This document shows positions 8,705 through 40,100 of a stretch of 64,000 nucleotides of DNA, piece by piece. The stretch is taken from sequence record NC_031934.1; one strand, 5' to 3'. The stretch's first letter is position 1; each line of letters starts with the position of its first letter. A model generated the notes under the pieces. That model was not told the DNA's origin. It searched no databases and saw only the letters and a list, made by a program, of their open reading frames with translations. This DNA is from Escherichia phage MX01. The translations under genes were made by a program, and so were the position numbers.

Positions 8705-8734
8705 ATTATACTCTGGTCCCAAGAGTTTGTAAAC
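8705..8734 (-). promoter_or_regulatory. T4-type early promoter (GTTTAC, 18-bp spacer, TATAAT) flanked by GGACC/GGTCC inverted repeat
   Basis: Read on minus strand. Confidence 0.5.
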
Positions 8735-8934
8735 TATTTTTGTGCTTTGGCGCCTTTCCAACCTTCATACATCATTGCTGCGGAAATTAACAAAGCACCC
8801 GAGCAACTTGAATATTTGTGATTCCAAAACCAGTTTAGAAAAACTTCGTCATCAATACCTTGGGCTATCATATTTTCAAAGAACTGACGACGAGATTCGG
8901 CAATTCGCTGTGATAATTTAGATTCAGGATTCAT
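8734..8934 (-). CDS. hypothetical protein
   Basis: 66-aa ORF. Confidence 0.35.
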   Translation of the reverse strand: MNPESKLSQRIAESRRQFFENMIAQGIDDEVFLNWFWNHKYSSCSGALLISAAMMYEGWKGAKAQK

Positions 8935-8945
8935 TTAAATTTTCC

Positions 8946-9239
8946 TCAGCTGTAACGATAACACTCGTTTGATTTACGTTTTGCAACTCGATGAGAAGTA
9001 TTGTAATCAGGTTCATCGTCGTTGTAAACATCTTTTTTCAGCTTTCTCACTTCTTTACGAAGCTGGCGGTTCATTTCATTCTTAACTTCGGAATCAACGC
9101 CTCTCATACGTTTCCACTTGTCAGAACGGAAGATATTTTCTTCAACCAGTTCCTGACTTACACCGTCCGGTGCTTTACGGCGACCTGAATAATAAAAATC
9201 TTTTACAGACAATTCTTTACGACGGATAGTTTTACCCAT
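8946..9239 (-). CDS. hypothetical basic protein
   Basis: 97-aa ORF rich in K/R. Confidence 0.4.
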   Translation of the reverse strand: MGKTIRRKELSVKDFYYSGRRKAPDGVSQELVEENIFRSDKWKRMRGVDSEVKNEMNRQLRKEVRKLKKDVYNDDEPDYNTSHRVAKRKSNECYRYS

Positions 9240-9246
9240 AGTTACC

Positions 9247-9495
9247 TCAGCAATTTACATCAATAAGATTTTTAATGTAATTAACGTCTGCAATACTCAG
9301 ATCGAGTTTAATAGCTTTCAGACGTTCATCCAGAGTAAGAAAAGTTACTCGCTTCCAATTCTTAACAGGGCAGCAATACGTTTTAGGGCCGTTAGCGATT
9401 TCAATATTTTTATCTGTGATGGTGATAAAAATCAGACGTACATAGTCAAGATTCAGGGTGATGACATTTCTCTTTGCATGTATTTTCAGGCTCAT
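9247..9495 (-). CDS. hypothetical protein
   Basis: 82-aa ORF. Confidence 0.35.
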   Translation of the reverse strand: MSLKIHAKRNVITLNLDYVRLIFITITDKNIEIANGPKTYCCPVKNWKRVTFLTLDERLKAIKLDLSIADVNYIKNLIDVNC

Positions 9496-9674
9496 AATTT
9501 AATTTCCTTAGCTATCGAACAAAACACACTACGGTCACACACCATCAATGGAATATTTTTATGGTCCAGTACACGATACCATACGTCTGAATCACTAGCA
9601 GCAATTACACGAACCGCACGTCCATTTATCAAATAATACTGGTCGGCTTTAATTTCTTTATCTTGGATAGTCAT
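9492..9674 (-). CDS. hypothetical protein
   Basis: 60-aa ORF. Confidence 0.3.
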   Translation of the reverse strand: MTIQDKEIKADQYYLINGRAVRVIAASDSDVWYRVLDHKNIPLMVCDRSVFCSIAKEIKL

Positions 9675-9703
9675 AATGGTCTCCTCATGTGTTGATAGGA
9701 TAG

Positions 9704-9732
9704 ACTATAACACGCGAGGAGAGGAAGTAAAC
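9704..9732 (-). promoter_or_regulatory. T4-type early promoter-like element (GTTTAC ... TTATAG)
   Basis: Minus-strand motif upstream of ORF 9492..9674. Confidence 0.35.
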
Positions 9733-9733
9733 A

Positions 9734-10051
9734 CTAATCTTCAATTAAATCTCGGTCATAGCCAAGTTCAATCAAAAGTGACTTAAAGGCAGGAATATTT
9801 TCTATTTTCTTATTATCGACAAATATGACAGGGTAGCGTATCGCTAAGCTCTTGAAGCCAGCACGTTTGGCCAATGATACTATAAGAGGCTTGTCATATA
9901 CTGCGCCTGACGGCGTCTGGTTAATCACAGGATAGAAAGTATGCGGGATAGAAAGGGAATTTAGGAGCGATAGAACTGCAATGCACCCTGGACAGCGCAT
10001 GACTGTCTCAGGGATACCGTAAATCTCAATTTTAGTTAACTTTTGGCCCAC
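9734..10051 (-). CDS. glutaredoxin/thioredoxin-fold protein with CPGC motif
   Basis: 105 aa; KIEIYG...CPGC...; distinct from NrdC at 12335..12598. Confidence 0.4.
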   Translation of the reverse strand: MGQKLTKIEIYGIPETVMRCPGCIAVLSLLNSLSIPHTFYPVINQTPSGAVYDKPLIVSLAKRAGFKSLAIRYPVIFVDNKKIENIPAFKSLLIELGYDRDLIED

Positions 10052-10328
10052 AGGAAATCACTCCTTGGTAGTCCCAGGTTTTTAGAACTTCGTCATCAAC
10101 AGTTTCATAAGGAACATAAATCTGAATAAGGAACCCAGTATCATCAAAAGAGAAGTAGACAGTAGGTTTAATACCATGAATCTCTGACAGAGCATAGATG
10201 TCCTTGAGGTCGTCTTCCTTACCTTTAAAGAATTCGGGATTCAGGTCACAGTCATGGAAGTACCAATCATCACCAAACTTGTCCCAAGCACCCCAATCAG
10301 TAGCTACATATTCTTCAAAACGTTTCAT
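10032..10328 (-). CDS. hypothetical protein
   Basis: 98-aa acidic ORF. Confidence 0.4.
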   Translation of the reverse strand: MKRFEEYVATDWGAWDKFGDDWYFHDCDLNPEFFKGKEDDLKDIYALSEIHGIKPTVYFSFDDTGFLIQIYVPYETVDDEVLKTWDYQGVISCGPKVN

Positions 10329-10552
10329 TCTTTCACCTTCATCATTTTAGAAATAACACCGTGGACAGACTGGATTCGTTTTTCGAACTCAGACCCTTCA
10401 AGACCTTTTTCAGTACTCAGGGCACCGATAATAACAAACAGTAATCCAAACGGGATGACCAGGATTAAAAGGCACACGATAAACAGGACAAATGTAATAT
10501 TGGCCAGGATATCAGAAACAGCATTACGAAATTTGTTCATTAAAGAACCCAC
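10325..10552 (-). CDS. hypothetical small membrane protein
   Basis: 75 aa with a long hydrophobic segment. Confidence 0.4.
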   Translation of the reverse strand: MGSLMNKFRNAVSDILANITFVLFIVCLLILVIPFGLLFVIIGALSTEKGLEGSEFEKRIQSVHGVISKMMKVKE

Positions 10553-10661
10553 ATGTTAGTTACAACAAATAACCATTGAGCAGGATACTCAACACCCATA
10601 ATACGAACCGCATCGTTCAGAGATTCGGCTAAAGCATAAAATGTATAGCCATAAAAATTAA

Positions 10662-11437: not shown

Positions 11438-11740
11438 TCATGCGACCTCAAATTCATTATCATCGTTAGTCCAAAAACACCAGAATGCAGATTTAGTGCC
11501 TTCATACATTTCTTTGGTGTATTCATATACCTTACCGTTGAACTCAATAGCAGTCACACCAATGATTTCAGGATTACCCCAGGGAGAAATCTCCACCTTC
11601 AAGATTTTAACTTCAGCACCTTCACAGAGCTTACCGGATTCAAAGCCGCGATTGCCGTTTAATTCAGGCCAGTCAACATAATGGTCAACGGTTTCTTCAG
11701 TAATACGAACAGTTTTACCTTCAAATTCAAATAAATTCAT
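11438..11740 (-). CDS. hypothetical protein
   Basis: 100-aa ORF. Confidence 0.4.
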   Translation of the reverse strand: MNLFEFEGKTVRITEETVDHYVDWPELNGNRGFESGKLCEGAEVKILKVEISPWGNPEIIGVTAIEFNGKVYEYTKEMYEGTKSAFWCFWTNDDNEFEVA

Positions 11741-11955
11741 CAGAATACCTCATCAGAAAAGCGAAGTTGAGATTCAAGCCAATGGATATAGTCAGCGGCA
11801 GCTTTAATCAAATCGGATTCTAGGTCAGGTAAAGAACCTGAATCCGACAACTCGTAAAGCGAATGTTCAATCAGACGGCCTTTATGACGGCCAACTTCAA
11901 TTTTGGTACTCATATCCAAACTCCATATCGATGAAATCATTGTTTGAAGGTTCAT
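11740..11955 (-). CDS. hypothetical protein
   Basis: 71-aa ORF. Confidence 0.35.
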   Translation of the reverse strand: MNLQTMISSIWSLDMSTKIEVGRHKGRLIEHSLYELSDSGSLPDLESDLIKAAADYIHWLESQLRFSDEVF

Positions 11956-12029
11956 TATACTCTATTTCGGAATCGTTGTAAACCGGTTCCTCTGGCCCGG
12001 TAGTTTCCCACCGAGCGACATACCATGGC

Positions 12030-12338
12030 TTAACGGTCACACCACCAACTAGATACTTCAAAATCGGGTTCACCATCTTCCCAATACCAAGGACCAATTG
12101 GGTGCCAATCACCGTGTTCATCTTCTTCAAATTCTTCGGATTCAAGCCCAACGTATTGCCATTGGACTTCATAAGCAGTACCACCGATTACAACGGTGTT
12201 CTCACCATATGGGTGAGCTACAGCAAAGTCTATACCTTCTGCTTTAGCCAACCAAACCATATATTCATATAGTTTATATTCCAGGTCATCTTCGGTGCCA
12301 TCACCTAGAAAAATGGTTTGTTCGTTTAATTCAATCAT
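12030..12338 (-). CDS. hypothetical acidic protein
   Basis: 102-aa ORF, overlaps nrdC stop. Confidence 0.4.
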   Translation of the reverse strand: MIELNEQTIFLGDGTEDDLEYKLYEYMVWLAKAEGIDFAVAHPYGENTVVIGGTAYEVQWQYVGLESEEFEEDEHGDWHPIGPWYWEDGEPDFEVSSWWCDR

Positions 12339-12598
12339 TTGAAATACGCTCGCAGCTGGTCAAACCCACCAATATGACTTCCGTCTGGAGCGAATACCTG
12401 AGGCATAGTCAAACCGACCTGAGATTCGCGTCCAAGTGCAGTCAAGAGTTCAGCAATCTTCTCATCATCAAACACGCCTTTTTCCGGCATCACGTTAATG
12501 AATTCGTAAGGTTGTTTCTTAACATCAAGCAGACGTTTGGCATTATCACAGAAAACACAACGGTGAATATTTGAATCGTAACCATAAACTTTAAACAT
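12335..12598 (-). CDS. nrdC: thioredoxin/glutaredoxin NrdC
   Basis: 87 aa; MFKVYGYDSNIHRCVFCDNAKRLL... CxxC active site; collinear with T4 NrdC. Confidence 0.85.
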   Translation of the reverse strand: MFKVYGYDSNIHRCVFCDNAKRLLDVKKQPYEFINVMPEKGVFDDEKIAELLTALGRESQVGLTMPQVFAPDGSHIGGFDQLRAYFK

Positions 12599-12599: not shown

Positions 12600-12836
12600 T
12601 TAAATTCCTAATATTTGTTTGAATGCTTCAGAACGGTCAAGTTCTGTTCCGTATTTTTCCATGTGCTCATATTTTAAATCATACACATCAGATAGTATAT
12701 TATTATACGAGCGAGTTAAAGCAGATTTCAATACTGAATAACTGTCCGGAAATTTACCGTGCTCTTTATAATAAGCTAGAGTAAGTTCGCGGACTGCCTT
12801 ATCGGCAGCCTCTACATATTCTTTACGCTTTGCCAT
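12600..12836 (-). CDS. hypothetical protein
   Basis: ORF with start set at internal MAKRKEY. Confidence 0.35.
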
Positions 12837-13161
12837 TTTCGTCTCGCTCAAATTTGTGTTTACAATGGCGGCATTTGTAACGAAGATTACTAGTCTGCCA
12901 ATGGACCAATTGGACCTGTTCTGTACCGCACTCAGGACAGTTAGGAACATTCTTAGAAGATTGTTCTCGTCGTGCGACCATAGCCATCACAGCGTCCCAA
13001 TTAACAGGGCTATAATCATCACAGCCATGAATTTTACCAACCAATTCAACTTCAACATCAGCGGCTTTAATAAATTTTAAAAGACCTTTATTAAGCCCCG
13101 CTGCGGGGGTCCATTCTGGAAATGCAGTTTCTGCAATATCTTCAGCTAAACGTTGTTTCAT
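12823..13161 (-). CDS. hypothetical zinc-ribbon protein
   Basis: 112 aa; CPECG...CRHC pair. Confidence 0.4.
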
Positions 13162-14207
13162 TTCAGCAGCTCCAGAGCCTGTTCAAGACGGTCTAAACGA
13201 TTGGTAGACTCTTCCCAAAGTTTCTTGGCAGCGGTATATTGCCCGGTCAGTTTTTTGTTGATATCAAGGGCATCTTTATACGCTTTTTCTAAGGCAACGA
13301 CTTCTGGTAACTTGGATTTAGTAATTGGTGTAGGGGCCATGATAGGGCTGTTCAAGTCGTTAATCAAGTCTTCTAATGTAGCAGGCTCTTTATCAGTATT
13401 CACAATTTCCTCACATTTTTCTTGGTAAATTTCAGCGTCAGTTTTTGGAACGGTACATTTGATTTCACGGACTGTTACTAAGACCTCATATCCTTTCCAG
13501 CCTAAGTGGTGTTTAACTTCTTGGGTCTCATATTTCTCTACGGTATCCATCAGAGCTAAAGCTTGTTCGATAGTATTCAAGGTATCGTAAGCAATATCTT
13601 GATACTTTACAACTTCCGCATCATCTTTAGGTTTCCTATTAGGTGACCAAATAACAGAAATAATAGCTTTTCCTTTATAACTATTTGTTTTAATCATGCA
13701 ATTAGCCATCGGGTGAATAGTACGACAATCACCGGAAACTATAGTTTTAGAGGCCGCTTTGAGAATTAATGCAGAGTTAGCCTTGAATTCGCTAACCCAA
13801 CGTTGCGGAAATAAACTATTAGGGTCCATACCTTTAATTTTGATATAACCTTTTATGGTATCACCAAACCATTTGTAGCTAACAACACGGTTGGAACCTG
13901 GATATTTCTCTTTGCCAAACTCTGAAAGGATGTCCTTATTGACCAGGCGCGAAAGCAGTCGAGAACCTTTAAATGTTTTAATGATATCATGAATGCACAA
14001 ACGGCCTGCAATCTTTTCGATTTCAGCTTTGAAACAGCGCGATAATGCATCATCAATTTGGTCGACCCATTTATTGATATTAGAAACTATTACCTCGTAT
14101 GGGGTTAACGGAGGGGTGTTGGTAGTGATATACGTAGTAAAGGCATTGATGTATTCAGTACGAGTCATGATATTCTCCTCAGTAGATTTAAAAAGATTAT
14201 ACTCCAT
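13158..14207 (-). CDS. hypothetical protein
   Basis: 349-aa ORF, no recognisable motif. Confidence 0.45.
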   Translation of the reverse strand: MEYNLFKSTEENIMTRTEYINAFTTYITTNTPPLTPYEVIVSNINKWVDQIDDALSRCFKAEIEKIAGRLCIHDIIKTFKGSRLLSRLVNKDILSEFGKEKYPGSNRVVSYKWFGDTIKGYIKIKGMDPNSLFPQRWVSEFKANSALILKAASKTIVSGDCRTIHPMANCMIKTNSYKGKAIISVIWSPNRKPKDDAEVVKYQDIAYDTLNTIEQALALMDTVEKYETQEVKHHLGWKGYEVLVTVREIKCTVPKTDAEIYQEKCEEIVNTDKEPATLEDLINDLNSPIMAPTPITKSKLPEVVALEKAYKDALDINKKLTGQYTAAKKLWEESTNRLDRLEQALELLK

Positions 14208-15126: not shown

Positions 15127-15304
15127 AGAATTTAGCGATTGGCCAGGTTATAATAAAAACTATCCCAAATATAGCAAGAACTGGCCAGATAAAGGTGGCA
15201 AACACTGCTTCACCACCTGAGTTAATTTCCATATGATTACGACCAATAAGGACAGTAATGAATCCTAATGCAAGGTACAGAAGAATAAAACCTGCGATTT
15301 CCAT
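15104..15304 (-). CDS. hypothetical small membrane protein
   Basis: 66 aa, two hydrophobic helices. Confidence 0.4.
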   Translation of the reverse strand: MEIAGFILLYLALGFITVLIGRNHMEINSGGEAVFATFIWPVLAIFGIVFIITWPIAKFYEKLFGL

Positions 15305-15306
15305 AA

Positions 15307-16149
15307 TTAATCCTTAAGAAGATTTAAAATATCTGTATATTTTTGACGTTCAGCCTTAGCTTTAGCGTTCAGACCAGAGAGTCGGAAAATCTCATCGTCT
15401 TGTTGCTGAATTGTAACATTCAAGCAAGTAAGCAAATTGCTAAAATACTCGATTTGAGCTTGATGCTTCTCATTGCTGCGCACTGGTACAGGTTCCATTT
15501 TAGGAGCTTCTGAATGATTCTTAACTTCATTACCCGGCTTAACAAGTTTAATACGCCAGCCTGTACTGGTATTAACATTATCGAAGGTAAGAATACCGCT
15601 ACGTTCTAGTTCAGACAAAGCCAATCGAAGATGGAACTCCCAGTTGTCATATTGACAACCACTAAAAGTTGAAGTAAGATACTCGTTTTCGTTACCTGGT
15701 TGGTTGACAATATTAAAGATAATCCAATCACCTGAACCATTAGTCTTAAATGGCATTTGCTTATCTTTACCTAAAGCTAGACGAGCACCCAGTGCTAGTA
15801 AACGACGTTGGTTAGTACGAAGGTCTTTAACAACTTCATCAAATGACATCGCCGGGATTAAACGACCATAGAGGTCATAGCCTTTGTTATAATTTCTAAG
15901 AATAATTCTGGCGTTAGCACGAGTCAACATACCGGCCCTGTGAAGAGATTTCATGACTCGGTCTTCTAACGTAAACAAACCTTTAGTCTTGTCAAAGATT
16001 TTAGTGAATTCATCTACAGAAATACAAACTTCAAACTTTTCCCACATCATGGCCAAAACCTTTTCAACCACTTCTTTATTCAGTGGAATACGACCAAATT
16101 TAATAACTTTTTTAACTTCAGAACGAATTTGATTAATTGCCTGTGACAT
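15307..16149 (-). CDS. hypothetical protein
   Basis: 280 aa; shares exact upstream cassette and MSQAI N-terminus with ORF 8337..8666. Confidence 0.45.
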   Translation of the reverse strand: MSQAINQIRSEVKKVIKFGRIPLNKEVVEKVLAMMWEKFEVCISVDEFTKIFDKTKGLFTLEDRVMKSLHRAGMLTRANARIILRNYNKGYDLYGRLIPAMSFDEVVKDLRTNQRRLLALGARLALGKDKQMPFKTNGSGDWIIFNIVNQPGNENEYLTSTFSGCQYDNWEFHLRLALSELERSGILTFDNVNTSTGWRIKLVKPGNEVKNHSEAPKMEPVPVRSNEKHQAQIEYFSNLLTCLNVTIQQQDDEIFRLSGLNAKAKAERQKYTDILNLLKD

Positions 16150-16212
16150 AATAATTTCCTCAGTAAGTAATTAAGAACCTAGAACCATTATACCATCCTT
16201 GGTATAAAGCGT

Positions 16213-16737
16213 TTATGCGAGAACCGTCTTTAAACGCTCTTCAAATTTCTGAAGCAGAGCTTGGCGTTCAGCTCGTTGTGATTTGTACTGCTCGATACGA
16301 CCTGAAGTGAGGGCGTACTGTTCGTTTACTGATTCCCGCATGAATTCAGGAATCTCTTTACAAGCTTTGATTTCGTCAAACTTATCAATAACAGCTTGTT
16401 GTTCAGCAATCAGATTATCGAAATAAGCGATATCAGATTTAACGTTTGCCAGGTCGGATTCGGTAGGCATTAAACGTTTGTTACGTTCAGCTTGATAAGC
16501 TTGATTGGTTTCACGACTCCAGTGAAGAGTACGTTTTTTGTTGGTGTTTTTATAGAGCTCTACAATACCAACTGAATCGATGATAACAATCCAGTTCCAA
16601 CGGCTTTTGTAAATCTCTCCTCCAGATACGGTAATCTCATTACCGCAAGCAACGTCGTTAAAGAACTTGCTTTGTTTTTCAGATTTGAAATTACCATTAT
16701 TAAAATTAATCAGTGAAAAAATATCTTTAGCGTTCAT
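16213..16737 (-). CDS. hypothetical protein
   Basis: 174-aa ORF with early promoter and GGAGG RBS upstream. Confidence 0.45.
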   Translation of the reverse strand: MNAKDIFSLINFNNGNFKSEKQSKFFNDVACGNEITVSGGEIYKSRWNWIVIIDSVGIVELYKNTNKKRTLHWSRETNQAYQAERNKRLMPTESDLANVKSDIAYFDNLIAEQQAVIDKFDEIKACKEIPEFMRESVNEQYALTSGRIEQYKSQRAERQALLQKFEERLKTVLA

Positions 16738-16763: not shown

Positions 16764-16792
16764 ATAGTATCATTTCTACCGGAGATGTAAAC
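16764..16792 (-). promoter_or_regulatory. T4-type early promoter (GTTTAC, 17 bp, TACTAT)
   Basis: Minus-strand motif; conserved AGACCTATCAAC just downstream of -10. Confidence 0.5.
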
Positions 16793-17145: not shown

Positions 17146-18165
17146 TTATTTCAGAAGTGTAACTTCAGCGATTTCGCTCCAGTCATTTTTATCGGTGGCA
17201 ATGAAGTCCGCCAGATAAAGAGCTGTACGTAATGATACGTTACGAAGACGAGATACATTAGCCTTCATCCATGCTAAAGCTTGATAAGTCTCAGCATCAG
17301 TCAGACCTCGATTTTGCATCATATCAGTGGACAGGATAACGTCTTCAACACGAACCATAATCTCTTCGTTAGAGTGAACTCCAAGGTCTAAGTAAACTGA
17401 ACGAGATACTAAAGCCTGGAGGTGTGGAGCAAGTTTAGTTCCACGCTCTAATTCACGGTCGATATCAACGTTGGTGATGAACACGATGGTGCCTTCGTAT
17501 TCGAATTCTTTATCGATGTTTTTATCATCGAGGTAAGAACTTGAAGTGCTCCAGCACACCTTACGTTTTTCACCAGTATCCAATGCTGCTTTTAACAGGT
17601 TCAGGATATCCATATCAGAGAATACATCAACATCATCAATAAGAAGAACACTATTAGGGCCGCGGTTATTCCAAAGCTGCTCGTAAAGACCGATTCCACT
17701 AATCTTTCCGTTGATTGATTTATATTCGATAGTTTCATTTTCGTGGGCATTCTGTAATGCTTTATCCAAAGAATACGTTTTACCAATACCTGCGGCACCA
17801 GAGATGATAAGGGAACGAATTTTACCATCGATGATTCCATTAGTCATCATGTTCATTACTTTAAAACGTTTGTTAATGCGATGTTTCATTTCTTCAGCGG
17901 ATTCAGTAACCATTGCAGGAGCTCCAGCACCTTCGGTTTCGATATCACATTTGAACACCCATACACCACGTTCAACACCATCAATCTGTACGAATACCTT
18001 GCCATCACCTAGGTGAGCTTCGGATTCATGAATTTTATTAGGGAACCAGGTTTTACCTGAACTCATGAACGTACCGGAGATTACATTACCGCGATAGATA
18101 CCTTTGTTGATTTTGATAGTTAACATTATATTCTCCATTTCACTCAGTAGATTTGATAGGTCCAT
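17146..18165 (-). CDS. AAA+/P-loop ATPase with N-terminal domain of unknown function
   Basis: 339 aa; Walker A ISGAAGIGKT, Walker B VLLIDDVD, sensor-like TIVFITN. Confidence 0.55.
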   Translation of the reverse strand: MDLSNLLSEMENIMLTIKINKGIYRGNVISGTFMSSGKTWFPNKIHESEAHLGDGKVFVQIDGVERGVWVFKCDIETEGAGAPAMVTESAEEMKHRINKRFKVMNMMTNGIIDGKIRSLIISGAAGIGKTYSLDKALQNAHENETIEYKSINGKISGIGLYEQLWNNRGPNSVLLIDDVDVFSDMDILNLLKAALDTGEKRKVCWSTSSSYLDDKNIDKEFEYEGTIVFITNVDIDRELERGTKLAPHLQALVSRSVYLDLGVHSNEEIMVRVEDVILSTDMMQNRGLTDAETYQALAWMKANVSRLRNVSLRTALYLADFIATDKNDWSEIAEVTLLK

Positions 18166-18192: not shown

Positions 18193-18212
18193 TCTTTTTT
18201 TGCACTAAACCC

Positions 18213-18234
18213 AAAAAAGGCCCGAAGGCCTTTT
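18213..18234 (-). terminator. rho-independent terminator hairpin (GGCC-CGAA-GGCC flanked by A and T runs)
   Basis: Directly after stop of ORF 18236..19246. Confidence 0.5.
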
Positions 18235-18235
18235 A

Positions 18236-19246
18236 TCATTTATAATACGAGTTATGGTTTTCTAGGTATACCTCTTCGACGAACTTGTCCCAGAACTTCA
18301 TGTCTACCTTAGCAGGCATACCGTTCTTAGATGCCTGGATGGCTAGGACTTCAACCAAATCAACAGTATCTTCAAGAAGTTCTTGAACTTCTTTAAATGG
18401 TAATTCACCGGCTTTAATCAGCTTAATGATAGAGGCTTCGCGCAATGGGAACACCAGGTCGCCTGTTTGGTAGATTTCTAACAATTGATACCCTGCGCGA
18501 TAAGCATGGCTCAGAGCTTTCCAGTCAATACCTTCGTTAGCTTCAGCTTTACGGGCCCGTTCACCATATTCCGCATCGAGCTTATTCAGAGATTGCTTGA
18601 GCTCGATTAAAGATAAAGTAGTTTGGTACTTACGTCCGAGAACAGTATAGAACGTTTGAGGACCTGTTTTCTCATGGTTATGGAATACCCATTCACAGAA
18701 CTCGTTTTCAGGGAGTCGATGTTTGATATCTTCTACACGAGTACGACGTTGCTTAGTCGAACCATCTTCTTGATAATCGACCCACTGTTCAGGAATCTGG
18801 TTAACAATAGCCAGTACACCACGCAGTGCAGCTAGTCGAGAACCCTTAACACCATATTTAGAAGCTTGCTTACGGACGTACCCTAAATAGGCTTTCATGT
18901 TAGTCGTATAGAACCGAGAACGATTGTCTTGGATAAATTTCCATACATCAGGTAAATCAGATTTAACCACCATTTCAGGTGGAGTGTGGAGCATATCCAG
19001 AGCAACGGTTTCGCCATCTGCCGCCAGTTTAAAGAAATATTTCAGACTGTAAAGCTCATGGTCAACATCATCTTTAGTGTTTTTGGAAGCAGTGTTATTC
19101 GTGTTCAGGTTGGTATGGTTCATTGCCGTACCCAACAGAATATCACGCGGATGTGGAACAAAGATTTCTTTAAAATCGACATCAGATTCCGGAGTACTTG
19201 TTCCATAAAGGTGGGAGCCAAAATATCCCTTCATAACTGTTCTCAT
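18236..19246 (-). CDS. Pol-beta-superfamily nucleotidyltransferase-fold protein
   Basis: 336 aa; N-terminal GS-x10-DVD (FGSHLYGTSTPESDVDF) NTase signature. Confidence 0.5.
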   Translation of the reverse strand: MRTVMKGYFGSHLYGTSTPESDVDFKEIFVPHPRDILLGTAMNHTNLNTNNTASKNTKDDVDHELYSLKYFFKLAADGETVALDMLHTPPEMVVKSDLPDVWKFIQDNRSRFYTTNMKAYLGYVRKQASKYGVKGSRLAALRGVLAIVNQIPEQWVDYQEDGSTKQRRTRVEDIKHRLPENEFCEWVFHNHEKTGPQTFYTVLGRKYQTTLSLIELKQSLNKLDAEYGERARKAEANEGIDWKALSHAYRAGYQLLEIYQTGDLVFPLREASIIKLIKAGELPFKEVQELLEDTVDLVEVLAIQASKNGMPAKVDMKFWDKFVEEVYLENHNSYYK

Positions 19247-19705: not shown

Positions 19706-20266
19706 TTAAGAGTTCATAGTTGGGATAACAGAGTTCAGATAAGAGACTAAAACTTTTAGCTCGTCTTTAGTAAATACAACTTCACTTTCACCGTCATGTC
19801 TTTGGGTCAAGGATAGCAAATCACGGCCCTGGTGTTGATACACGGTTAATTCAGTATCATAATTCAGTTCTTCTTCATCACCTTCAAAGGTTTCACTAGA
19901 GCGAATTACAGCATCTTGACCCGGGACTTTCCATTCAACTTCCGGCTTGCATTCTTCCTGGAACAGTTTAAAAATACATTTAAAGAAATTATCGGGATTG
20001 CTAATGCTTAGGCATTCTGCATCCGTTTCCAAATTAAACCCAGCGCTGTGCTTATAAATGCGGGCGCATACATCATCGTTAATATCAAATACACCGCTAA
20101 AGCTACCACCAAGATAATCCTGTTTGTCCAAAACCTTTAAATCATAAAGCGGTTTAATATCAGCGATAGTCAGTACGATTTTATCGTCTTCTTGTGAAAG
20201 CTCAATTGCGTTATTAACTACTTCAGCGGACAGTTCGCCAAACAATTCAGTTGTTTCAATAATCAT
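19706..20266 (-). CDS. hypothetical acidic protein
   Basis: 186-aa ORF. Confidence 0.4.
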   Translation of the reverse strand: MIIETTELFGELSAEVVNNAIELSQEDDKIVLTIADIKPLYDLKVLDKQDYLGGSFSGVFDINDDVCARIYKHSAGFNLETDAECLSISNPDNFFKCIFKLFQEECKPEVEWKVPGQDAVIRSSETFEGDEEELNYDTELTVYQHQGRDLLSLTQRHDGESEVVFTKDELKVLVSYLNSVIPTMNS

Positions 20267-20276
20267 TTTCTATTCC

Positions 20277-20549
20277 TCAACGGTTATGTTTTAAAATACT
20301 ATAAAGCTCTTCGACTTGGTCTGCATTCAGACAAATCATATCATTTTCTTGTTGGAGCGTAATTCCACCTTTTTCTTCCCAATCTTTAACAAAGACATCA
20401 TCGTCAGATTCTTCAACATCTGCCAAAAGAACAATAATACCATCTTCAGAATTACCACTAGGGTCATATAACATTACAGTTTCCTCGCTAACCGTGAAAA
20501 GAATAAACCAATTAAAACAGGCCCTACAACCATTGTTAACCAAGCCCAA
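20277..20549 (-). CDS. hypothetical protein
   Basis: 90-aa ORF. Confidence 0.35.
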   Translation of the reverse strand: MGLVNNGCRACFNWFILFTVSEETVMLYDPSGNSEDGIIVLLADVEESDDDVFVKDWEEKGGITLQQENDMICLNADQVEELYSILKHNR

Positions 20550-26944: not shown

Positions 26945-26986
26945 ATTATTCCTTAAGTTGATAGAAGTATTCTATCACGGATTTAA

Positions 26987-27403
26987 TTAAGCGTAAATCG
27001 CCTTACCATAATGTTTGTACCAGGTAGGGCGCTGTGCAATTTTTTCGTCCAAACGGGCCTGTGAAATGGCGATAGAAGCTTCGTGAGGAACATAGTCACC
27101 ACGGAATTCCTGAGGAATATCACTAATGTCCCGGACCGTAGTGTCCTTGATATTAAAACCACGTTTTAAACATTCGGCTATAAGCTCGATTTGACGTTTA
27201 CGTAAAAATTCAAGCTTATCGTAAAAGAATGTAACATGACCTGTACCAAGGATAAAAGTAGGACTGATTTTGAAATCACGGACACGTTTACCATTAGCAA
27301 CATGCTTACGAACTGCACCGAAAACACGTGGTAATTCACGGTACTCAGCCATTAAGTGTTGGTCAGCCAATTCAGATACTAAGGTAAGGTTGATACGAGT
27401 CAT
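26987..27403 (-). CDS. denV: endonuclease V (pyrimidine-dimer DNA glycosylase) DenV
   Basis: 138 aa; [29 protein letters not shown]... very close to T4 DenV as recalled. Confidence 0.9.
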
Positions 27404-27766: not shown

Positions 27767-27807
27767 ATGGGTCCTTTAAATGTAAATAAGCCTAAGTATA
27801 GGCTTTA

Positions 27808-28404: not shown

Positions 28405-28457
28405 ATGGGTTCCTTAAAGGTAAATATTTTAATTGGTCTGTTCAAGTAACTGTAGAT

Positions 28458-28486
28458 ATACTATCACAATTCTAGGAGATGTAAAC
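28458..28486 (-). promoter_or_regulatory. T4-type early promoter (GTTTAC, 17 bp, TAGTAT)
   Basis: Minus-strand motif upstream of ipIII-like gene. Confidence 0.5.
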
Positions 28487-28885
28487 TTATTTATAGGTCT
28501 TCATCCAATTCTTGAACAAAGCCGCGACGTCTTTCTCTTTAACGTTCAGTTTAAGGTCTAACATTTTACCACCGGCAGCACGTGTCTGACGAATCTTAGC
28601 AGTACCGGTTTCGCCATTCCACTCAACATAATACTGTCCAGTGTTCATTGCAATACCATCGCCGTAGTCTTCATTTTTAGAAGTTGTGAAGGCCAGCTTC
28701 ATAGTCTTAGATACACGAGCCTGCATGCCAGTCTGAAGGGCATTACGAACGCGAATAACCTGAGGAGTGGCCTGGGTCAGGTTCTCATTCAGTTCTTCAG
28801 TGAACTCTTCAGATTCAAACATCGCCAAAAGTTCTTTAGATGCAGGAATTACATTCTCTGCGATAAATTCATTATAAGTTTTCAT
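28487..28885 (-). CDS. internal-protein-like protein (CTS-bearing)
   Basis: 132 aa; [10 protein letters not shown] start. Confidence 0.5.
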
Positions 28886-29366
28886 ATGCTTTCCAAGTAC
28901 CTGTTTTAAATGTGGAAATCACGCGCTTAGCACGATTAGGAGTTTGTTTATACCAACGGGATTGAGCCAGGTTAACTGCTGCATCATCCCAACGTTTTTG
29001 CTGAAGCATACGCAGAGAGTTAGTGAACCCTGCTACGCCTGCTTCACCCATTTGGAAGACCATGTTAATTAAAGCACAACGACGAACTTCGTCCAGTACA
29101 TCATAAACAGGTTTCAATTTAGGATTACGCAGAATAGCTCTACGAGCATTTTCAACCGATCGGTTAAAGAGTTGCTCAGCTTCAGCCATAGTAATACGAC
29201 CGTTGCAAACTCGGCCCATAAGCTTATCGAGTTCAGCGCGAGCAACATCTTTAGATGGGTTCTTGGTAATCAACTGACCAATGCCAATAGTCCAATAACC
29301 TTCGGTGTCTTTATAAAGATTTAAATCAAGACCTTCGTCTTGACGTAACATATCAAAAATATCCAT
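28872..29366 (-). CDS. e: endolysin (T4 lysozyme e)
   Basis: 164 aa; [13 protein letters not shown]...[13 protein letters not shown]...[25 protein letters not shown]. Confidence 0.9.
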
Positions 29367-29368
29367 AA

Positions 29369-29396
29369 TACCTCCTGAGTATAGGAGGTATTTATA
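29369..29396 (-). promoter_or_regulatory. gene e RBS-sequestering hairpin (ACCTCCT/AGGAGGT) overlapped by late promoter TATAAATA
   Basis: Perfect 7-bp inverted repeat whose 3' arm is the SD; TATAAATA on minus strand at 29389..29396. Confidence 0.6.
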
Positions 29397-31368: not shown

Positions 31369-31581
31369 TTACTTTTTGTTGAAAAAGTACATTTTACCTT
31401 TAGGGGATAAAGATACACGAAGTGCGTTACCAATACCAACTGAACATTTAACCAGGTCAGCAGATTTCAATTCACCAAATGCTTGACGAAGGTCACCGTC
31501 ACGAGTGTTAACCATCAGGCATTTAGCACCAGCTGCACGAACTTCGTTTAACATGTTGATTGCTTGGTTAGAAAGTTTCAT
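31369..31581 (-). CDS. hypothetical protein
   Basis: Start set at MKLSNQAI with GGAGAATAAA RBS; early promoter lies inside the longer track ORF. Confidence 0.4.
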   Translation of the reverse strand: MKLSNQAINMLNEVRAAGAKCLMVNTRDGDLRQAFGELKSADLVKCSVGIGNALRVSLSPKGKMYFFNKK

Positions 31582-31618: not shown

Positions 31619-31647
31619 ATAGTATCATGCCTATAGACCTTGTAAAC
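31619..31647 (-). promoter_or_regulatory. T4-type early promoter inside an inverted repeat (PeSL-like)
   Basis: AGGTCTATAG / CTATAGACCT inverted repeat spanning spacer and post -10 region. Confidence 0.5.
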
Positions 31648-32638: not shown

Positions 32639-32878
32639 TTAAATTTCAGCAACGTAATCGTTATGCAATTCCCACATATCATCAGAATTATTCTTAATGA
32701 TAGGAATTATCTCATTAGAGATTTCTTCTGCATAAGGGTCGTTGATACAGTGGGCATCTTCAAAACGAACACCGTAATCAGACTTCTTATAAGCAAAGCC
32801 ATAAATCTTTTTAAACTTGGCACGGGTAATGCGTACCGGTTCATTAGACTTATCGGACATCGGAGCGTAATACCACAT
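32639..32878 (-). CDS. hypothetical protein
   Basis: 79-aa ORF. Confidence 0.35.
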   Translation of the reverse strand: MWYYAPMSDKSNEPVRITRAKFKKIYGFAYKKSDYGVRFEDAHCINDPYAEEISNEIIPIIKNNSDDMWELHNDYVAEI

Positions 32879-32921
32879 ATGTTCTCCTCATGTTTGTGTA
32901 GGGTAATAGTAACACGTATTT

Positions 32922-33272
32922 TTAGAGTTGTACATCACTTCTGCAATATTCTAAAAATAATTTATCGTTGTCTACCGTATCCCAACGACGCCAAGATGGA
33001 TTCCAGACCAGAGCGTTGTCACCACAATCATTGAGCTTAAAATGGTCGTAGTACATAGCTATACGTCTAGTTTCGTCACCAGAGAATCCCAGTATAGGCT
33101 CACCATGGGTGTGATACATATGATGGTGCATTGAGAGGTCGCATTTGTAAAACATCTCACGTTTACCGCGAACGAACAAGAAAGCTTGCCCATTCATATA
33201 GAATTCTTTATCTGTTTTCAAAAGATATTTGAATACTGAATCTTTATGCATAAGTCCTCCTACCACATCCAT
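32922..33272 (-). CDS. hypothetical protein
   Basis: 116-aa ORF. Confidence 0.35.
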   Translation of the reverse strand: MDVVGGLMHKDSVFKYLLKTDKEFYMNGQAFLFVRGKREMFYKCDLSMHHHMYHTHGEPILGFSGDETRRIAMYYDHFKLNDCGDNALVWNPSWRRWDTVDNDKLFLEYCRSDVQL

Positions 33273-35469: not shown

Positions 35470-36063
35470 TTACTTAAGTGAATTAATGTAGTCTTCGATA
35501 TCAGCAGAAGTCGTATCCATTCCAACTTGTGGGCCTTTAAACGTTTCTACACGCAGTAGGGTGTCTTCAATATCAATCTTAGTCAGTGCAGCGATTTCAA
35601 CAACATCATCGGCAGTAGCAATACCAAGGGCAGCCATATTACGAGTTTCACGGATGTACTCGAGCTTAACAGCCAGTTCCTGACGAGAGTCATCAAGTTC
35701 CTTAACCTTCAGTTTAATTTCATTACGCATTTCGATATAATCATCGGCTTTCTTACGAAGCTGAGTAGCTGTACGACGATAAAGGAGACCGAGTTTAGCA
35801 TGTACCTGGACATCAGAGCCTTCGGCAATCAGTTTACGAATTTCACGTTCTTTAGAAGCAGCGAGCTGGTCTTTTTCATTAGCCAAAGCACGAATACGTT
35901 TTTCTTCATTCACAGACTTAACATGAGCCGTCTGGAGTTCAGTGATTTTATCAATCAGGGTAGAAGCAGCTTTGGTGTATTGGTCTTCGATTGACAGGTT
36001 CTGAGCCATCGCGGTACCCAGTTTAGAACGGATGAATTCAACGATTTTCTTTAAAGTGTTCAT
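35470..36063 (-). CDS. coiled-coil protein, possibly PspA/IM30-like
   Basis: 197 aa, predicted long helices; weak resemblance only. Confidence 0.3.
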
Positions 36064-36105: not shown

Positions 36106-36135
36106 ATTATACCCTGTCCTCTGAGGTTTGTAAAC
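36106..36135 (-). promoter_or_regulatory. T4-type early promoter (GTTTAC, 18 bp, TATAAT) within GAGGAC/GTCCTC inverted repeat
   Basis: Minus-strand motif. Confidence 0.5.
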
Positions 36136-36138: not shown

Positions 36139-36537
36139 TTATTTCATTTTTGCGAGGCAAATTTCATTGGCTTCCCATTGAGCTTGCTTAATAATAGCTT
36201 TGGATACAGGAGCCCTTTGGCCATAAGTTTTTGACGTTGAGAGAACAATACATTTGTTTGCCTCATTATGCCATCCCCATGATTTTTCGCCATGAGTACC
36301 TTTAACTACAGCAGACACCTCAACAGAGCAACCACCATCAGAAATCTTGGTTTCGACAACCCATTCATTTCTCTCAGCAGCTTCAATTTCTAATCTAGTT
36401 TTTTCTTCATACATCGCGGCCCAATCAGTTTTTGCCAAGTTGAAAGTAAGAGCTTTCTCTAGTTCTTTGGCATATTTTTGTTGTTCAGGTGTTAATGAAT
36501 TATACAACTCTTGCATTTCTTTATCTTCGATATTCAT
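36139..36537 (-). CDS. hypothetical protein
   Basis: 132-aa ORF. Confidence 0.4.
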   Translation of the reverse strand: MNIEDKEMQELYNSLTPEQQKYAKELEKALTFNLAKTDWAAMYEEKTRLEIEAAERNEWVVETKISDGGCSVEVSAVVKGTHGEKSWGWHNEANKCIVLSTSKTYGQRAPVSKAIIKQAQWEANEICLAKMK

Positions 36538-36562: not shown

Positions 36563-36592
36563 ATAATATCTTAATCATGAGCCCATGTAAAC
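36563..36592 (-). promoter_or_regulatory. T4-type early promoter within ATGGGCTCAT/ATGAGCCCAT inverted repeat
   Basis: Minus-strand motif. Confidence 0.45.
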
Positions 36593-36595: not shown

Positions 36596-36859
36596 TTATT
36601 TCATATTATTGAAATAATTTTCTGCATCAAAATCATTACCATGGTAAACTTTGGTAGACGATTTGGCGTAACCTTCAGCTGAGAACATATTAATCACAAC
36701 TTTAATTGTATACCACTGTCCATCTTCATTACCCATTACTGCATAGGTTTCATACACCGGGTGTTCAGGACCGATAACTTTAATATCGTTAACAGTAGCA
36801 CCAAATTCTTCAGGGACGCATTTCATAAAGAAATTAAACACTTCACCATAATTATCCAT
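36596..36859 (-). CDS. hypothetical protein
   Basis: Start set at MDNYGEV with AAGGAG RBS. Confidence 0.4.
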   Translation of the reverse strand: MDNYGEVFNFFMKCVPEEFGATVNDIKVIGPEHPVYETYAVMGNEDGQWYTIKVVINMFSAEGYAKSSTKVYHGNDFDAENYFNNMK

Positions 36860-36947: not shown

Positions 36948-36976
36948 AAAAAAAGGCCCAACCTTTCGGAAGGGCC
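36948..36976 (-). terminator. terminator hairpin, copy 1 of an identical ~28-bp element
   Basis: AAAAAAGGCCCAACCTTTCGGAAGGGCC; stem plus T-run on minus strand. Confidence 0.5.
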
Positions 36977-36981
36977 TAGAA

Positions 36982-37835: not shown

Positions 37836-37910
37836 TGGTATCCCGCCCTGGGATCGAACCAGGACCGCAAACTTAGAAGGATCGTATGCTATCCATTACA
37901 CCAGCGGGAC
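37836..37910 (-). tRNA. tRNA, anticodon UCU (Arg) by manual folding
   Basis: Minus-strand cloverleaf: acceptor GTCCCGC/GCGGGAT, T-arm CCTGG-TTCGATC-CCAGG, anticodon loop CTTCTAA, encoded CCA. Confidence 0.6.
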
Positions 37911-37915
37911 ATAGT

Positions 37916-37992
37916 TGGTGACCCGGACCAGATTTGAACTGGTAACCTTTCCCTTATGAGGGGACTGCTGCTAACCATTGAGCTACGGGGCC
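37916..37992 (-). tRNA. tRNA, anticodon CAU (Met or Ile) by manual folding
   Basis: T-arm ACCAG-TTCAAAT-CTGGT, D-arm GCTC-AATGGTTA, anticodon loop CTCATAA, encoded CCA; one acceptor-stem mismatch. Confidence 0.5.
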
Positions 37993-38438: not shown

Positions 38439-38729
38439 TCATTGTGGCCACATATTAATGTAATCAAGTTTAATAGAAGCAATCTTCAAAGGATTTTTAA
38501 AGATGTCGTATTCGATCAATCCGTTTTCAGTTGCGGTGTAGAAAGTAAAGTTAACAGAATTATAACGGCGACCATTAACTTTTAGTTTAACGTCGCTTGA
38601 ACTACGACCAATATTAACCTGTTGGACATCAAGCACAGCACCTTTGCCAAAGTTGCGAATCAGTAGCTCTGCTGCAACCTGGTCCGAATTATAGCCATTC
38701 TCTGGATTAGTAACCTTAACGTATAGCAT
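38439..38729 (-). CDS. hypothetical protein
   Basis: 96-aa ORF. Confidence 0.4.
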   Translation of the reverse strand: MLYVKVTNPENGYNSDQVAAELLIRNFGKGAVLDVQQVNIGRSSSDVKLKVNGRRYNSVNFTFYTATENGLIEYDIFKNPLKIASIKLDYINMWPQ

Positions 38730-39149
38730 TTAACCCTCGTCTACAATAGTATGGGTATTAGCATTAACAATCTGCCACCAGTCACAGTCAAAACGATTAG
38801 AACCGTAACGAGGCTTTTTCTCATTTTCGTTAATAATATCACGTAGTTCGTCTTCAGAAAATGCTTTAGCGATTAAATCGGTATAGCCGCCACGTGGATA
38901 ATAGTTATCACCTGCGAACAGAAGGAAATTTACTTTACCAGAAGGAACATATGCTTCCTTAGGATACTTGTTTCCTGCTTGGTCTACCACTTCAATATAA
39001 CGGTAAGGAATATCGGTACTTTCAACCCATTGCCAAGCTGCAGCAGGGGATTCAAAAGCATCTACACCTAAACGGTTATCTTCATCTTTAGACGGATTAT
39101 TTTCATAATCCGCATATACATAATATTTCATTTTACTCACCTTTTGCAA
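38730..39149 (-). CDS. hypothetical protein
   Basis: 139-aa ORF. Confidence 0.4.
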   Translation of the reverse strand: MQKVSKMKYYVYADYENNPSKDEDNRLGVDAFESPAAAWQWVESTDIPYRYIEVVDQAGNKYPKEAYVPSGKVNFLLFAGDNYYPRGGYTDLIAKAFSEDELRDIINENEKKPRYGSNRFDCDWWQIVNANTHTIVDEG

Positions 39150-39318
39150 TTTTATCCATAACGATAGCGATTAAACCGATTAGAAATGCTACTACCAATG
39201 AGATAGAATTTTCTGTTGTTGTCAGTAGTCCACAAATGAATCCTACAAACATCGAAAAACTAAAAGCCATTGAAGCAATTACTACAGCAACATTACGAAT
39301 CAGTTCAGCGCGTTTCAT
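39133..39318 (-). CDS. hypothetical small membrane protein
   Basis: 61 aa, hydrophobic. Confidence 0.35.
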   Translation of the reverse strand: MKRAELIRNVAVVIASMAFSFSMFVGFICGLLTTTENSISLVVAFLIGLIAIVMDKIAKGE

Positions 39319-39346
39319 TTTATTCTCCTCAGTAGTTGATAGGGTA

Positions 39347-39376
39347 ATAGTATCACTACCCTATCTAAAAGTAAAC
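39347..39376 (-). promoter_or_regulatory. T4-type early promoter within GATAGGGTA/TACCCTATC inverted repeat
   Basis: Minus-strand motif. Confidence 0.45.
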
Positions 39377-39387
39377 GGTTTTATAAA

Positions 39388-39696
39388 CTATTTTATTCCG
39401 CGTGATGCAATCGTATTCTGCCGTTTAACGCCAGTTTGTTTAAAGTTATGATTGTCGAGTTGATCGGTACGAGCAACTCCGAATGATGATTTAATCTTAG
39501 CTTTAGATCCTTTAGTTATAGAAATATACATCTCGGGAGCCCCTTTCTTAAAGTCCGAAGCAATTACTTCAACACCGTTCTTAGCAAGTGACTTCAGAAT
39601 TGCTTCCGCATACTCATCATCAAGACCCGCTTGAGTATGAATAATGAATGTCTTTGGTGCAGCCGCTTCATTGATAAATTCTTGATATGTTTTCAT
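39388..39696 (-). CDS. internal-protein-like protein (CTS-bearing), IPI-locus type
   Basis: Start MKTYQEFINEA; paralog of 26645..26944. Confidence 0.55.
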   Translation of the reverse strand: MKTYQEFINEAAAPKTFIIHTQAGLDDEYAEAILKSLAKNGVEVIASDFKKGAPEMYISITKGSKAKIKSSFGVARTDQLDNHNFKQTGVKRQNTIASRGIK

Positions 39697-39730
39697 TTTG
39701 ATTTCCATTTAGTTTTGTTTTGATAGGGCT

Positions 39731-39760
39731 ATAGTATCACCACTAAAGCCCGTTGTAAAC
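39731..39760 (-). promoter_or_regulatory. T4-type early promoter (GTTTAC, 18 bp, TACTAT)
   Basis: Minus-strand motif. Confidence 0.5.
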
Positions 39761-39762
39761 AA

Positions 39763-40035
39763 TTATTTTAAATAAATTGCATACTTTTTATAACCAGCTG
39801 TTTCGTGACGTAGCCCTTTTTCATTAGCAAAACGTTCAATATTGTTAATTTGATTCTGGTCAAGTTCTGAAGTATCAAATACAAAAAAGTTTCGCTTATT
39901 GCCTAAAGTTACGTGATTAGTCAAATCGATGTTATAGAGATGATTTATATCATCAATCATAGTCTTAACAGATTTGTTAATTTTTACTTCCTCATTAAGA
40001 ATAGATTCAGCGATAAATTCTTGATAAGTTTTCAT
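39763..40035 (-). CDS. internal-protein-like protein (CTS-bearing)
   Basis: 90 aa; starts MKTYQEFIAE. Confidence 0.5.
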   Translation of the reverse strand: MKTYQEFIAESILNEEVKINKSVKTMIDDINHLYNIDLTNHVTLGNKRNFFVFDTSELDQNQINNIERFANEKGLRHETAGYKKYAIYLK

Positions 40036-40058
40036 TTTGATTTCCGTGCGGTTAGTTT

Positions 40059-40100
40059 GTTTACAAGGTCTATAGTATCATGCCTATAGACCTTGTAAAC
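40059..40100 (-). promoter_or_regulatory. perfectly palindromic early promoter element (PeSL-like)
   Basis: GTTTACAAGGTCTATAG-tatcatgc-CTATAGACCTTGTAAAC, 17-bp perfect inverted repeat. Confidence 0.55.

Follow-up and report, generated by a model that had tools for sequence, protein, structure and literature searches.

Dispersed T4-type early promoters of a Dhakavirus-like phage, about half with hairpins, as probable short-homology linkers of gene cassettes

We analysed a 64,000-nucleotide (nt) stretch of Escherichia phage MX01 (sequence record NC_031934.1), hereafter the window, whose early region carries a family of repeated promoter elements that an earlier note, made from the letters alone, had likened to promoter-early stem-loops (PeSLs) and to the proposed recombination junctions of T4. 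Megablast groups the window with the JS98/JS10/IME08-type T-even phages (genus Dhakavirus); its nearest records share 90–97% identity with it, yet are mosaic. Annotation transferred from IME08, JS10 and T4 identifies 8–42 kb as a minus-strand early region in which the gene 55 neighbourhood is followed by nrdC, tk, vs, regB, denV, internal-protein (IP) genes, e and a tRNA cluster, and beyond the latter by a second IP locus, 57B/57A and genes 1 and 3. For comparison, eight relatives were aligned to the window at 86–94% identity: IME08, LHE83, C6, IME281, UP19, MN04, ESCO10 and JS10.

Exactly 15 matches to GTTTAC-N16–18-TAYWAT occur between positions 8705 and 40100, all on the minus strand, which bears out the count of at least 15 given in the earlier note; 100 dinucleotide shuffles give an expectation of 0.15 and a maximum of 3. 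With one mismatch allowed, 26 minus-strand matches compare with 3 on the plus strand (shuffle mean 4.8), and three credible one-mismatch sites (9704–9732, 27433–27461 and 28458–28486) bring the working family to 18 (Table 1). The same family is recovered by an unbiased repeat finder as its top direct-repeat families (D1–D4, D6, D8 and D9). All 18 sites lie 24–60 nt 5′ of the Shine–Dalgarno (SD) sequence and ATG of a minus-strand gene, and each of these genes is full length and matches PHROG. The description of the sites as just upstream of small open reading frames (ORFs) is therefore broadly right, with products of 57–336 amino acids; two of the sites, 9000–9029 and 11954–11983, are situated inside the ORF before them, at its 3′ end. 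The downstream genes encode IPs, DenV, RegB, a Lon inhibitor and many proteins of unknown function. Two further elements (26969–26998 and 32906–32935), each with a weak −35, an intact TGn/−10 and a partial downstream box, may represent family members that are weak or in decay.

Alignment of the instances gives a clear position profile: an A-rich tract before the −35, GTTTACA, TGn and the −10. The upstream tract has the consensus aAaAAAa and contains 12.6 A per 32 nt against a background of 9.8, and TGa precedes the −10 in most copies. The additional shared sequence that had been reported is real, with a core (A/G)(G/C)(A/C)CCTATCAA after the −10 in about 10 sites, and a conserved box, AGACCTATCAA, extends in about 10 copies over the discriminator and what are presumed to be the first bases transcribed; an exact shared 23-mer is confined to P36923 and P31647. 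A second promoter subtype has an 18-bp spacer and GAGTATAAT, and lacks TGn. Among the relatives, the −35, TGn/−10 and SD–ATG positions vary at 3%, compared with 14–18% elsewhere, and in T4 the orthologous genes ipI, trna.4, e.8, e.7, e.6, ipIII, ipII, denV, regB and mobD.5 carry the same elements. [quoted passage not shown] By their sequence the sites are T4-type early promoters, with activity and start sites predicted from homology to T4.

We then asked where the window and its relatives part company. Collinear blocks were chained and every indel or replacement of 20 bp or longer was counted; the tally is 67 distinct events, with 73 unique breakpoints. In this check, which the earlier note had proposed, breakpoints and elements do coincide: 14 of the 73 lie in promoter zones, which occupy 4.1% of the sequence (p = 1.6 × 10−6). 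A breakpoint is present at 11 of 16 promoter-bearing junctions compared with 25 of 65 promoter-less ones (p = 0.03), and the former have 2.06 independent event ends per junction, the latter 0.74 (p = 0.003). The most telling cases are the 37 events with two ends in the window, five of which join two different promoters where 0.13 would be expected (P about 2 × 10−7); in each of the five the register is kept to within 3 bp. These five, and a sixth from JS10 in which the crossover lies in the SD–ATG region, are listed in Table 1. The breakpoints are read directly from the alignments, and the recombination mechanism that would have produced them at the promoter elements is one that we infer.

Individual loci illustrate how cassettes have moved. 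The 385-bp P39760 cassette is missing from IME08, LHE83, C6, IME281 and UP19. Sequence inspection reveals a hybrid in UP19, in which the upstream flank of P36592 is joined to the body of P36135 through a common ATGAAATAAAAYGTTTAC, and deletions in UP19 and JS10 end at P36592. The IME281 denV promoter-leader is a near copy of a regB-type promoter-leader, and the promoter body of P40100 is identical to that of P31647 over 35 nt, yet serves an unrelated IP gene. Insertion hot spots lie 6–25 bp upstream of the −35 at P18192, P25173, P36923 and P40100: at the first (18198–18243) relatives carry four different inserts of 205, 312, 543 and 1011 bp, and at P36923 (36929–36946) five relatives have an insertion or replacement. 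Breakpoints at P28486 are 6–8 bp upstream of the −35, and two breakpoint ends fall inside the degenerate element 26969–26998. The most rearranged spot in the eight-relative comparison is the IP cluster at 39.3–40.1 kb. Six IP-like genes occupy two loci (26645–28885 and 39388–40035) and have a common capsid-targeting N-terminus, MKTY(Q/K)EFI; the direct-repeat families D5 and D7 are the 5′ ends and ribosome-binding sites (RBSs) of such genes.

The claim that the −10 is embedded in an inverted repeat holds for about 10 of the 18 sites and fails for the rest. The palindrome at 40059–40100 is perfect as described, with 17-nt arms and an 8-nt loop; its arms reach 18 nt when the flanking T/A at 40058 and 40101 is included, and 40058–40101 is the longest perfect inverted repeat within 8–42 kb. 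In a swap control that preserves composition and consensus, each −35-plus-spacer segment was folded with its own −10-to-ATG segment or with those of the 17 other promoters. The mean was −14.9 kcal/mol with own partners and −10.1 ± 0.7 kcal/mol with permuted ones, and none of 20,000 permutations reached the own-partner value. Ten sites (40100, 39760, 39376, 36592, 36135, 31647, 25173, 16792, 9732 and 8734) drive this result; the other 8 of the 18 elements have no stem above control. Eight elements fold at z-scores of −3.4 to −9.3, which equals or surpasses the established hairpin in the leader of gene e, also in the window (z −3.4), and stem stability ranges from −14 to −27 kcal/mol in minimum free energy (MFE). 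The swap effect is also seen in a wider set of 201 unique promoter-leader sequences, which form 62 ortholog groups from 27 loci, distant T-even phages included. The pairing specificity of the hairpins is thus an observed property, and any function for them is what we infer.

Two architectures recur. Class A stems have a short loop, with the 5′ arm in the spacer and the 3′ arm in the box immediately after the −10, and leave the SD free; no test yielded a function for them. In class B stems the loop is long and the spacer pairs with the SD region (regB, nrdC.8-like and 55.6-like genes), and in a variant at denV the 5′ arm begins inside the −10 and the 3′ arm covers the SD. Stems equivalent to that of P39376, although their arms differ, are present at the trna.4 and ipI promoters of T4. 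Compared with the T4 e.7 promoter, P36592 carries a compensatory change in its stem, the ESCO10 counterpart of the P36135 stem contains the compensatory pair GAGGGC/GCCCUC, and the P31647 stem is retained in relatives even where the −35 reads GTGTAC or GTATAC.

With the start of the own transcript taken as 7 nt after the −10 (the assumed +1), the SD at P25173, P16792, P9732 and P27461 is predicted to be unpaired at 0–23% in read-through RNA compared with 55–92% in the own transcript; for regB (P25173) the two values are 0.00 and 0.88. The 5′ arms are located in the spacer or stop short of the presumed +1, a geometry by which, given that start, own transcripts would bypass them. The probability that the SD pairs upstream is at least 0.75 at these four sites and at P14225, P21075, P36923 and P39760, and significant stems are found at four of the eight. 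An anti-SD tetramer right after the −35 occurs in 15 of 58 cases against 8.7%, a figure inflated by promoter paralogy.

The denV leader was surveyed at 79 IMG/VR loci with 59 unique upstream regions. Essentially every T-even-type phage surveyed has an early promoter before denV, with the pairing in or just after the promoter (T4: 8357–8414). In about 30 distinct T-even upstream regions the SD has a predicted unpaired probability of only 0.00–0.10, through at least 12 arm variants and both architectures, and 4 of 7 consensus pairs show covariation in which both sides have changed (RNAalifold). In the same survey, SD burial was not seen in jumbo-phage and marine denV homologues that lack the T-even promoter. 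At regB, T4 has a different 15-bp stem that buries the SD, as in Dhakavirus regB, although the stems are unrelated; the SD of RB69-like regB is not buried. There is accordingly a strong case for a conserved SD-burying hairpin at the denV early promoter. We propose, tentatively and at a little under even odds, that a subset of T-even early promoters (most clearly that of denV; also regB, 55.6 and nrdC.8 in this clade) is embedded in an RBS-sequestering hairpin, such that these genes would be translated only from their own early-promoter RNA and be silent on read-through. IPs are also made in quantity late, and the hairpin would keep denV off late read-through RNA from the upstream IP genes. Elsewhere in the window, gene e (28872–29366) has a hairpin at 29367–29392 on the minus strand (AUACCUCC...GGAGGUAU; MFE −14.1, z −3.4) that buries the SD, with a late promoter, TATAAATA, overlapping its 5′ arm, which is the classical T4 lysozyme arrangement.

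Taken together, these data make it probable, at roughly 80%, that the elements are Dhakavirus-like T4-type early promoters that double as short-homology linkers of cassettes, about half of them with hairpins. Their A-rich UP-like tract, GTTTAC(A), usual TGn and TAYWAT would be recognised by unmodified host sigma-70 polymerase. Some 18–20 similar copies of 12–35 bp, in direct orientation and tightly packed in the early region, would therefore offer short-homology substrates to the phage recombination machinery, and unequal exchange between two of them would delete, insert or replace a cassette of promoter plus gene, as in the PeSL/IP-locus model. In about half of the elements the spacer or −10 is predicted to pair with sequence just downstream to form a hairpin, and in the SD-pairing class the RBS would be closed in read-through RNA and open in RNA from the proximal early promoter. 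That the elements work like PeSLs, as promoter/stem-loop/SD–ATG units tied to cassette indels, is supported with qualifications. The T4-like junction interpretation of the earlier note survives in so far as breakpoints coincide with the elements; they are not specific to them, and the terminator role is unsupported.

Several observations weigh against this account. Set against only those other junctions that have spacers of at least 40 bp, promoter junctions no longer show an enrichment of breakpoints (11 of 16 versus 7 of 11); some of these control spacers contain degenerate promoter-like elements, and reclassifying them leaves the conclusion unchanged. Indels at promoter-less junctions are flanked by 9–22 bp direct repeats of stop/RBS/start sequence such as TTCAAATGATTGAATTAA and TAATGAGGAGAACAGTATGAAA (8333–8341, 8933–8945, 12326–12343, 12834–12848, 15299–15317, 20266–20279 and 21013–21034). 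Since promoter-less junctions recombine too, the promoter elements are not privileged sites, and the most economical interpretation is that short-homology recombination is general and uses any motif repeated at gene boundaries, promoters being the largest and most numerous class of such motifs. Stem positions are as variable as unpaired ones among close relatives (13.8% versus 17.8%), and single stem changes comprise 9 to G·U, 9 to A·C and 19 other mismatches (37 weakening in all) alongside 2 compensatory doubles; both findings speak against strong selection at present. No embedded stem has a sense-strand U-tract, and a terminator scan reports none. SD burial as a family-wide property was also rejected, with values of 0.49 for the own block, 0.46 for swapped blocks and 0.42 for random same-strand upstream sequence (p = 0.10).

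Could the family be an artefact of chance sigma-70-like sequences in AT-rich DNA, with the repeats reflecting compositional bias? A generic TTGACA/TATAAT scan is indeed no richer than shuffles (64 versus 53 ± 7; 45 versus 42 ± 6), but the T4-type pattern is enriched 100-fold, lies on one strand only, is intergenic and is conserved in the relatives and in T4; the shuffle statistics, the strand bias and the 3% variability at motif positions refute a chance origin, which we regard as wholly improbable. A terminator or attenuator function, by which the stem-loops would isolate cassettes from upstream transcription as in the original definition of PeSLs, has two observations in its favour: the embedded stems are stable, as their MFE values indicate, and in Arbiol 2010 (PMC2839356) one RB49 PeSL stem-loop cut lacZ expression as much as rrnB T1. 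Yet the stems lack a sense T-run and go unscored by the scan, and genuine terminators are separate hairpins. Canonical examples lie at 18215–18234, 27788–27805, 21088–21113 and 36954–36977 (two bidirectional, one with a GNRA loop), and classical terminators stand directly 5′ of P21075, P18192 and P36923. Moreover, denV stems take in the SD wherever they are placed, which a terminator role would not predict. The 40058–40101 palindrome is terminator-like on the plus strand only, where the promoter A-tract reads as a T-run. The terminator component of the PeSL definition is thus not supported by the sequence here, and we consider this function quite unlikely. As a separate observation, the palindrome followed by CCTTTTTAAA on the plus strand looks like an antisense intrinsic terminator.

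Similarly unlikely is a role for the inverted repeats as DNA, whether as cruciform or hairpin targets of recombination or as sites for a dimeric regulator of early promoters. Breakpoints do cluster at the elements, recent substitutions show no excess of G·U over A·C, as a strand-symmetric DNA feature predicts, and Arbiol 2010 (PMC2839356) speculates on a stem-specific DNA-binding protein. Against this, arms differ between promoters, which leaves no common protein site; crossovers lie in shared linear homology (A-tract plus −35, −10 plus box, or SD–ATG); promoter-less junctions recombine through plain direct repeats with no palindrome; and the constant partner of the denV stem is the SD, an RNA-level signal. 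Because the stem-less P36923, P18192 and P28486 are among the busiest breakpoints and crossovers use linear homology, no role for the hairpin in recombination is needed. The G·U versus A·C asymmetry, tried as a means to separate RNA-level from DNA-level selection, was uninformative at 9 versus 9. A further possibility, doubtful although it deserves more weight, is that the stems are non-adaptive by-products of templated (quasi-palindrome) mutation and inter-copy gene conversion, followed by neutral decay. The near-neutrality of stem positions among close relatives fits this, as does the degradation of some stems here relative to T4, for example at ipIII. P40100 differs from the otherwise identical body of P31647 only by a block change (ATCAAAAC to TGTAAAC) that extends the palindrome into the complement of the −35 and resembles a single templated event. 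By-products would not explain why in every T-even phage surveyed the denV leader pairs specifically with the SD, using two architectures and no fewer than 12 different arms, or why T4 and Dhakavirus have stems at promoters that are orthologous. Templated mutation nonetheless still competes as an explanation of how some stems arose, and early promoters that double as cassette linkers remain our preferred reading of the family as a whole.

Several other features of the window accompany these elements (Table 1). An Rfam search returned two tRNAs and nothing else; the two tRNA genes at 37836–37992 (Arg-tct and Met-cat) compare with Arg, Asn and Met in most relatives, and the spacers that flank them are the busiest indel sites of the region, with 8 and 6 event ends. 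At 7814, 18198–18243, 37916 and 42227, relatives carry inserts of 640–1010 bp, among them two annotated homing/intron-like endonucleases and one insert with an opposite-strand ORF. On the minus strand, at about 16170–16200, a candidate middle promoter of the MotA-dependent kind (cGCTTTA, 12 nt, TATAAT) lies 5′ of an nrdC.6-like gene (15307–16149), and the sequence downstream of it resembles that of P8734.

Table 1 Early-promoter elements, related features and promoter-to-promoter events in the window
Feature	Coordinates	Strand	Promoter, stem or event	Associated gene
P40100	40058..40101	−	−35 GTTTAC 40095–40100, TGn, −10 TACTAT 40072–40077, in 17/18-bp palindrome; MFE −27.4, z −9.3	Internal protein, 39763–40035; match to PHROG internal head protein family
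P39760	39726..39760 (promoter 39731–39760)	−	Stem GGGCUuUAGU/ACUAuAGCCC flanks −10	Internal protein, 39388–39696
P39376	39338..39376 (promoter 39347–39376)	−	12-bp stem around −10, z −3.4	trna.4-like, 39133–39318
P36923	36895..36923	−	No promoter-specific stem	e.8-like, 36596–36859
Terminator preceding P36923	36954–36977 + T-run		GNRA loop	
P36592	36555..36592 (promoter 36563–36592)	−	13-bp stem around −10, z −5.5; SD free	36139–36537
P36135	36100..36135 (promoter 36106–36135)	−	GGGTATAAT type; stem GAGGAC/GUCCUC	e.6-like, 35470–36063
Degenerate promoter-like element	32906..32935	−	ATGTAC-N18-TACTAT, then TACCCTACAC (families D4, D11)	32639–32878
P31647	31613..31647 (promoter 31619–31647)	−	10-bp stem AGGUCUAUAG/CUAUAGACCU, z −4.4	31369–31581
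P28486	28458..28486	−	One mismatch, TAGTAT; stem weak or absent	ipIII-like, 27808–28404
P27461	27406..27461 (promoter 27433–27461)	−	TATAGT; hairpin 27406–27436, z −3.5	denV, 26987–27403
Degenerate promoter-like element	26969..26998	−	ATTTAC-N18-TAGAAT, TGn, CTATCAAC box	IP-like, 26645–26944
P25173	25123..25173 (promoter 25145–25173)	−	11-bp stem AUCUCCUGUAG/CUACAGGAGAU, spacer with SD; z −4.8	regB, 24658–25116
P21075	21047..21075	−	No significant stem, z −0.1; preceded by intrinsic terminator 21088–21113	20782–21018
P18192	18164..18192	−	Preceded by bidirectional terminator 18215–18234	nrdC.10-like, 17146–18126
P16792	16742..16792 (promoter 16764–16792)	−	11-bp stem with one G-U, spacer to SD; z −3.5	nrdC.8-like, 16213–16737
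P14225	14196..14225	−	GAGTATAAT type; no significant stem, z −1.0	nrdC.4-like, 13158–14168
P11983	11954..11983	−	Match in or next to 49.1-like ORF; no stem	pin-like, 11740–11913
P9732	9680..9732 (promoter 9704–9732)	−	TATAGT; stem UCUCCUC..GUGU/ACAC..GAGGAGA, SD buried; z −5.7	55.6-like, 9492–9674
P9029	9000..9029	−	TACAAT; in 3′ end of ORF 8946–9239	55.3-like, 8734–8934
P8734	8694..8734 (promoter 8705–8734)	−	GAGTATAAT type; GGGACC/GGUCCU stem around −10	55.2-like, 8337–8666
In-register events	39387→39773 and 39355→39741		385 bp; inter-promoter distance 384	
In-register event	27469→28494		1024 bp; inter-promoter distance 1025	
In-register event	36126→36586		459 bp; inter-promoter distance 457	
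In-register event	39778→40116		337 bp replaced by 204 bp; inter-promoter distance 340	
Sixth event (JS10)	36548→36853		In register with two start codons; crossover in SD–ATG region	

These results are mainly confirmatory: they add a fourth T4-type lineage, the Dhakavirus-like phages, in which dispersed early-promoter elements lie at the ends of cassette gains, losses and replacements, and the in-register examples support the PeSL/linker model of modular evolution. They also qualify that model, because stop/RBS/start repeats are used too and the stems lack a terminator signature. The denV hairpin, interlocked with the early promoter and kept across T-even phages, provides a testable idea of what some of the stem-loops are for. 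If that idea is correct, RBS gating at early promoters would be a counterpart of the late-promoter switch of e, soc, 49 and I-TevI, and the role of a PeSL-like stem-loop would be translational insulation, not termination. We found no mention of RBS hairpins bypassed by an early promoter at denV or regB in the accessible literature, a scope that leaves Repoila 1994 and the T4 genome review outside, and Durand 2006 (PMC1702504) treats promoter-initiated denV RNA as unstructured.

Among known systems, the closest in promoter sequence are the T4 early promoters, which have the same GTTTAC −35, A-rich −40s, TGn, TAYWAT −10, extra consensus and early-strand position before early genes; the AGACCTATCAA box is strongly conserved in most copies here, whereas only some T4 promoters have it, for example that of denV. 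With the PeSLs of RB49/phi1, PST/T4 and nt-1/KVP40 the elements share the composite of AT-rich region, early promoter, stem-loop and SD/ATG, stems placed between the −35 and −10 or over the −10, as in the commonest RB49 subclasses, and a setting in hyperplastic regions with cassette indels whose crossovers, between two elements, map to the AT-rich region or to the interval from the −10 to the ATG. The positions of the crossovers agree with those in RB49 mini-circles, which are found either within the AT-rich region or in the stretch from the −10 to the SD or ATG (Arbiol 2010, PMC2839356). The outcome of such recombination appears here in genomes, as the five element-to-element events in register; circles are known from RB49. 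RB49 PeSLs differ in having near-perfect TTGACA/TATAAT promoters and G(n)-loop-C(n) terminator stems, where the elements here have T4-type promoters and AT-rich, individual stems with no terminator signature, and the family shows no homology to the RB49/phi1 elements with their TTGACA/TATAAT and GGGG-loop-CCCC stem. According to the same paper, PeSLs were defined in RB49/phi1 and the T-even elements are analogues, not homologues; those at the T-even IP locus, noticed by Repoila et al. 1994, combine T4 early promoters with weaker, AT-rich and variable stems (PMC2839356). This description matches exactly the elements found here, those of the 39.3–40.1 kb IP locus included, and the 39.3–40.1 kb cluster, like the IP-locus polymorphism elements of Repoila 1994 as relayed there, drives IP genes with MKTYQEFI targeting. 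The SD-burying stems, finally, resemble the hairpins of T4 e, soc, 49 and I-TevI, in which a hairpin encloses the RBS and a late promoter bypasses its 5′ arm (PMC3014915): in both cases the partner of the SD is a 5′ arm that only upstream promoters would transcribe, and RNA begun at a promoter within or over that arm would be translatable, with the difference that the bypassing promoter here would be an early sigma-70 one, and the 5′ arm lies in the spacer or between the −10 and the start.

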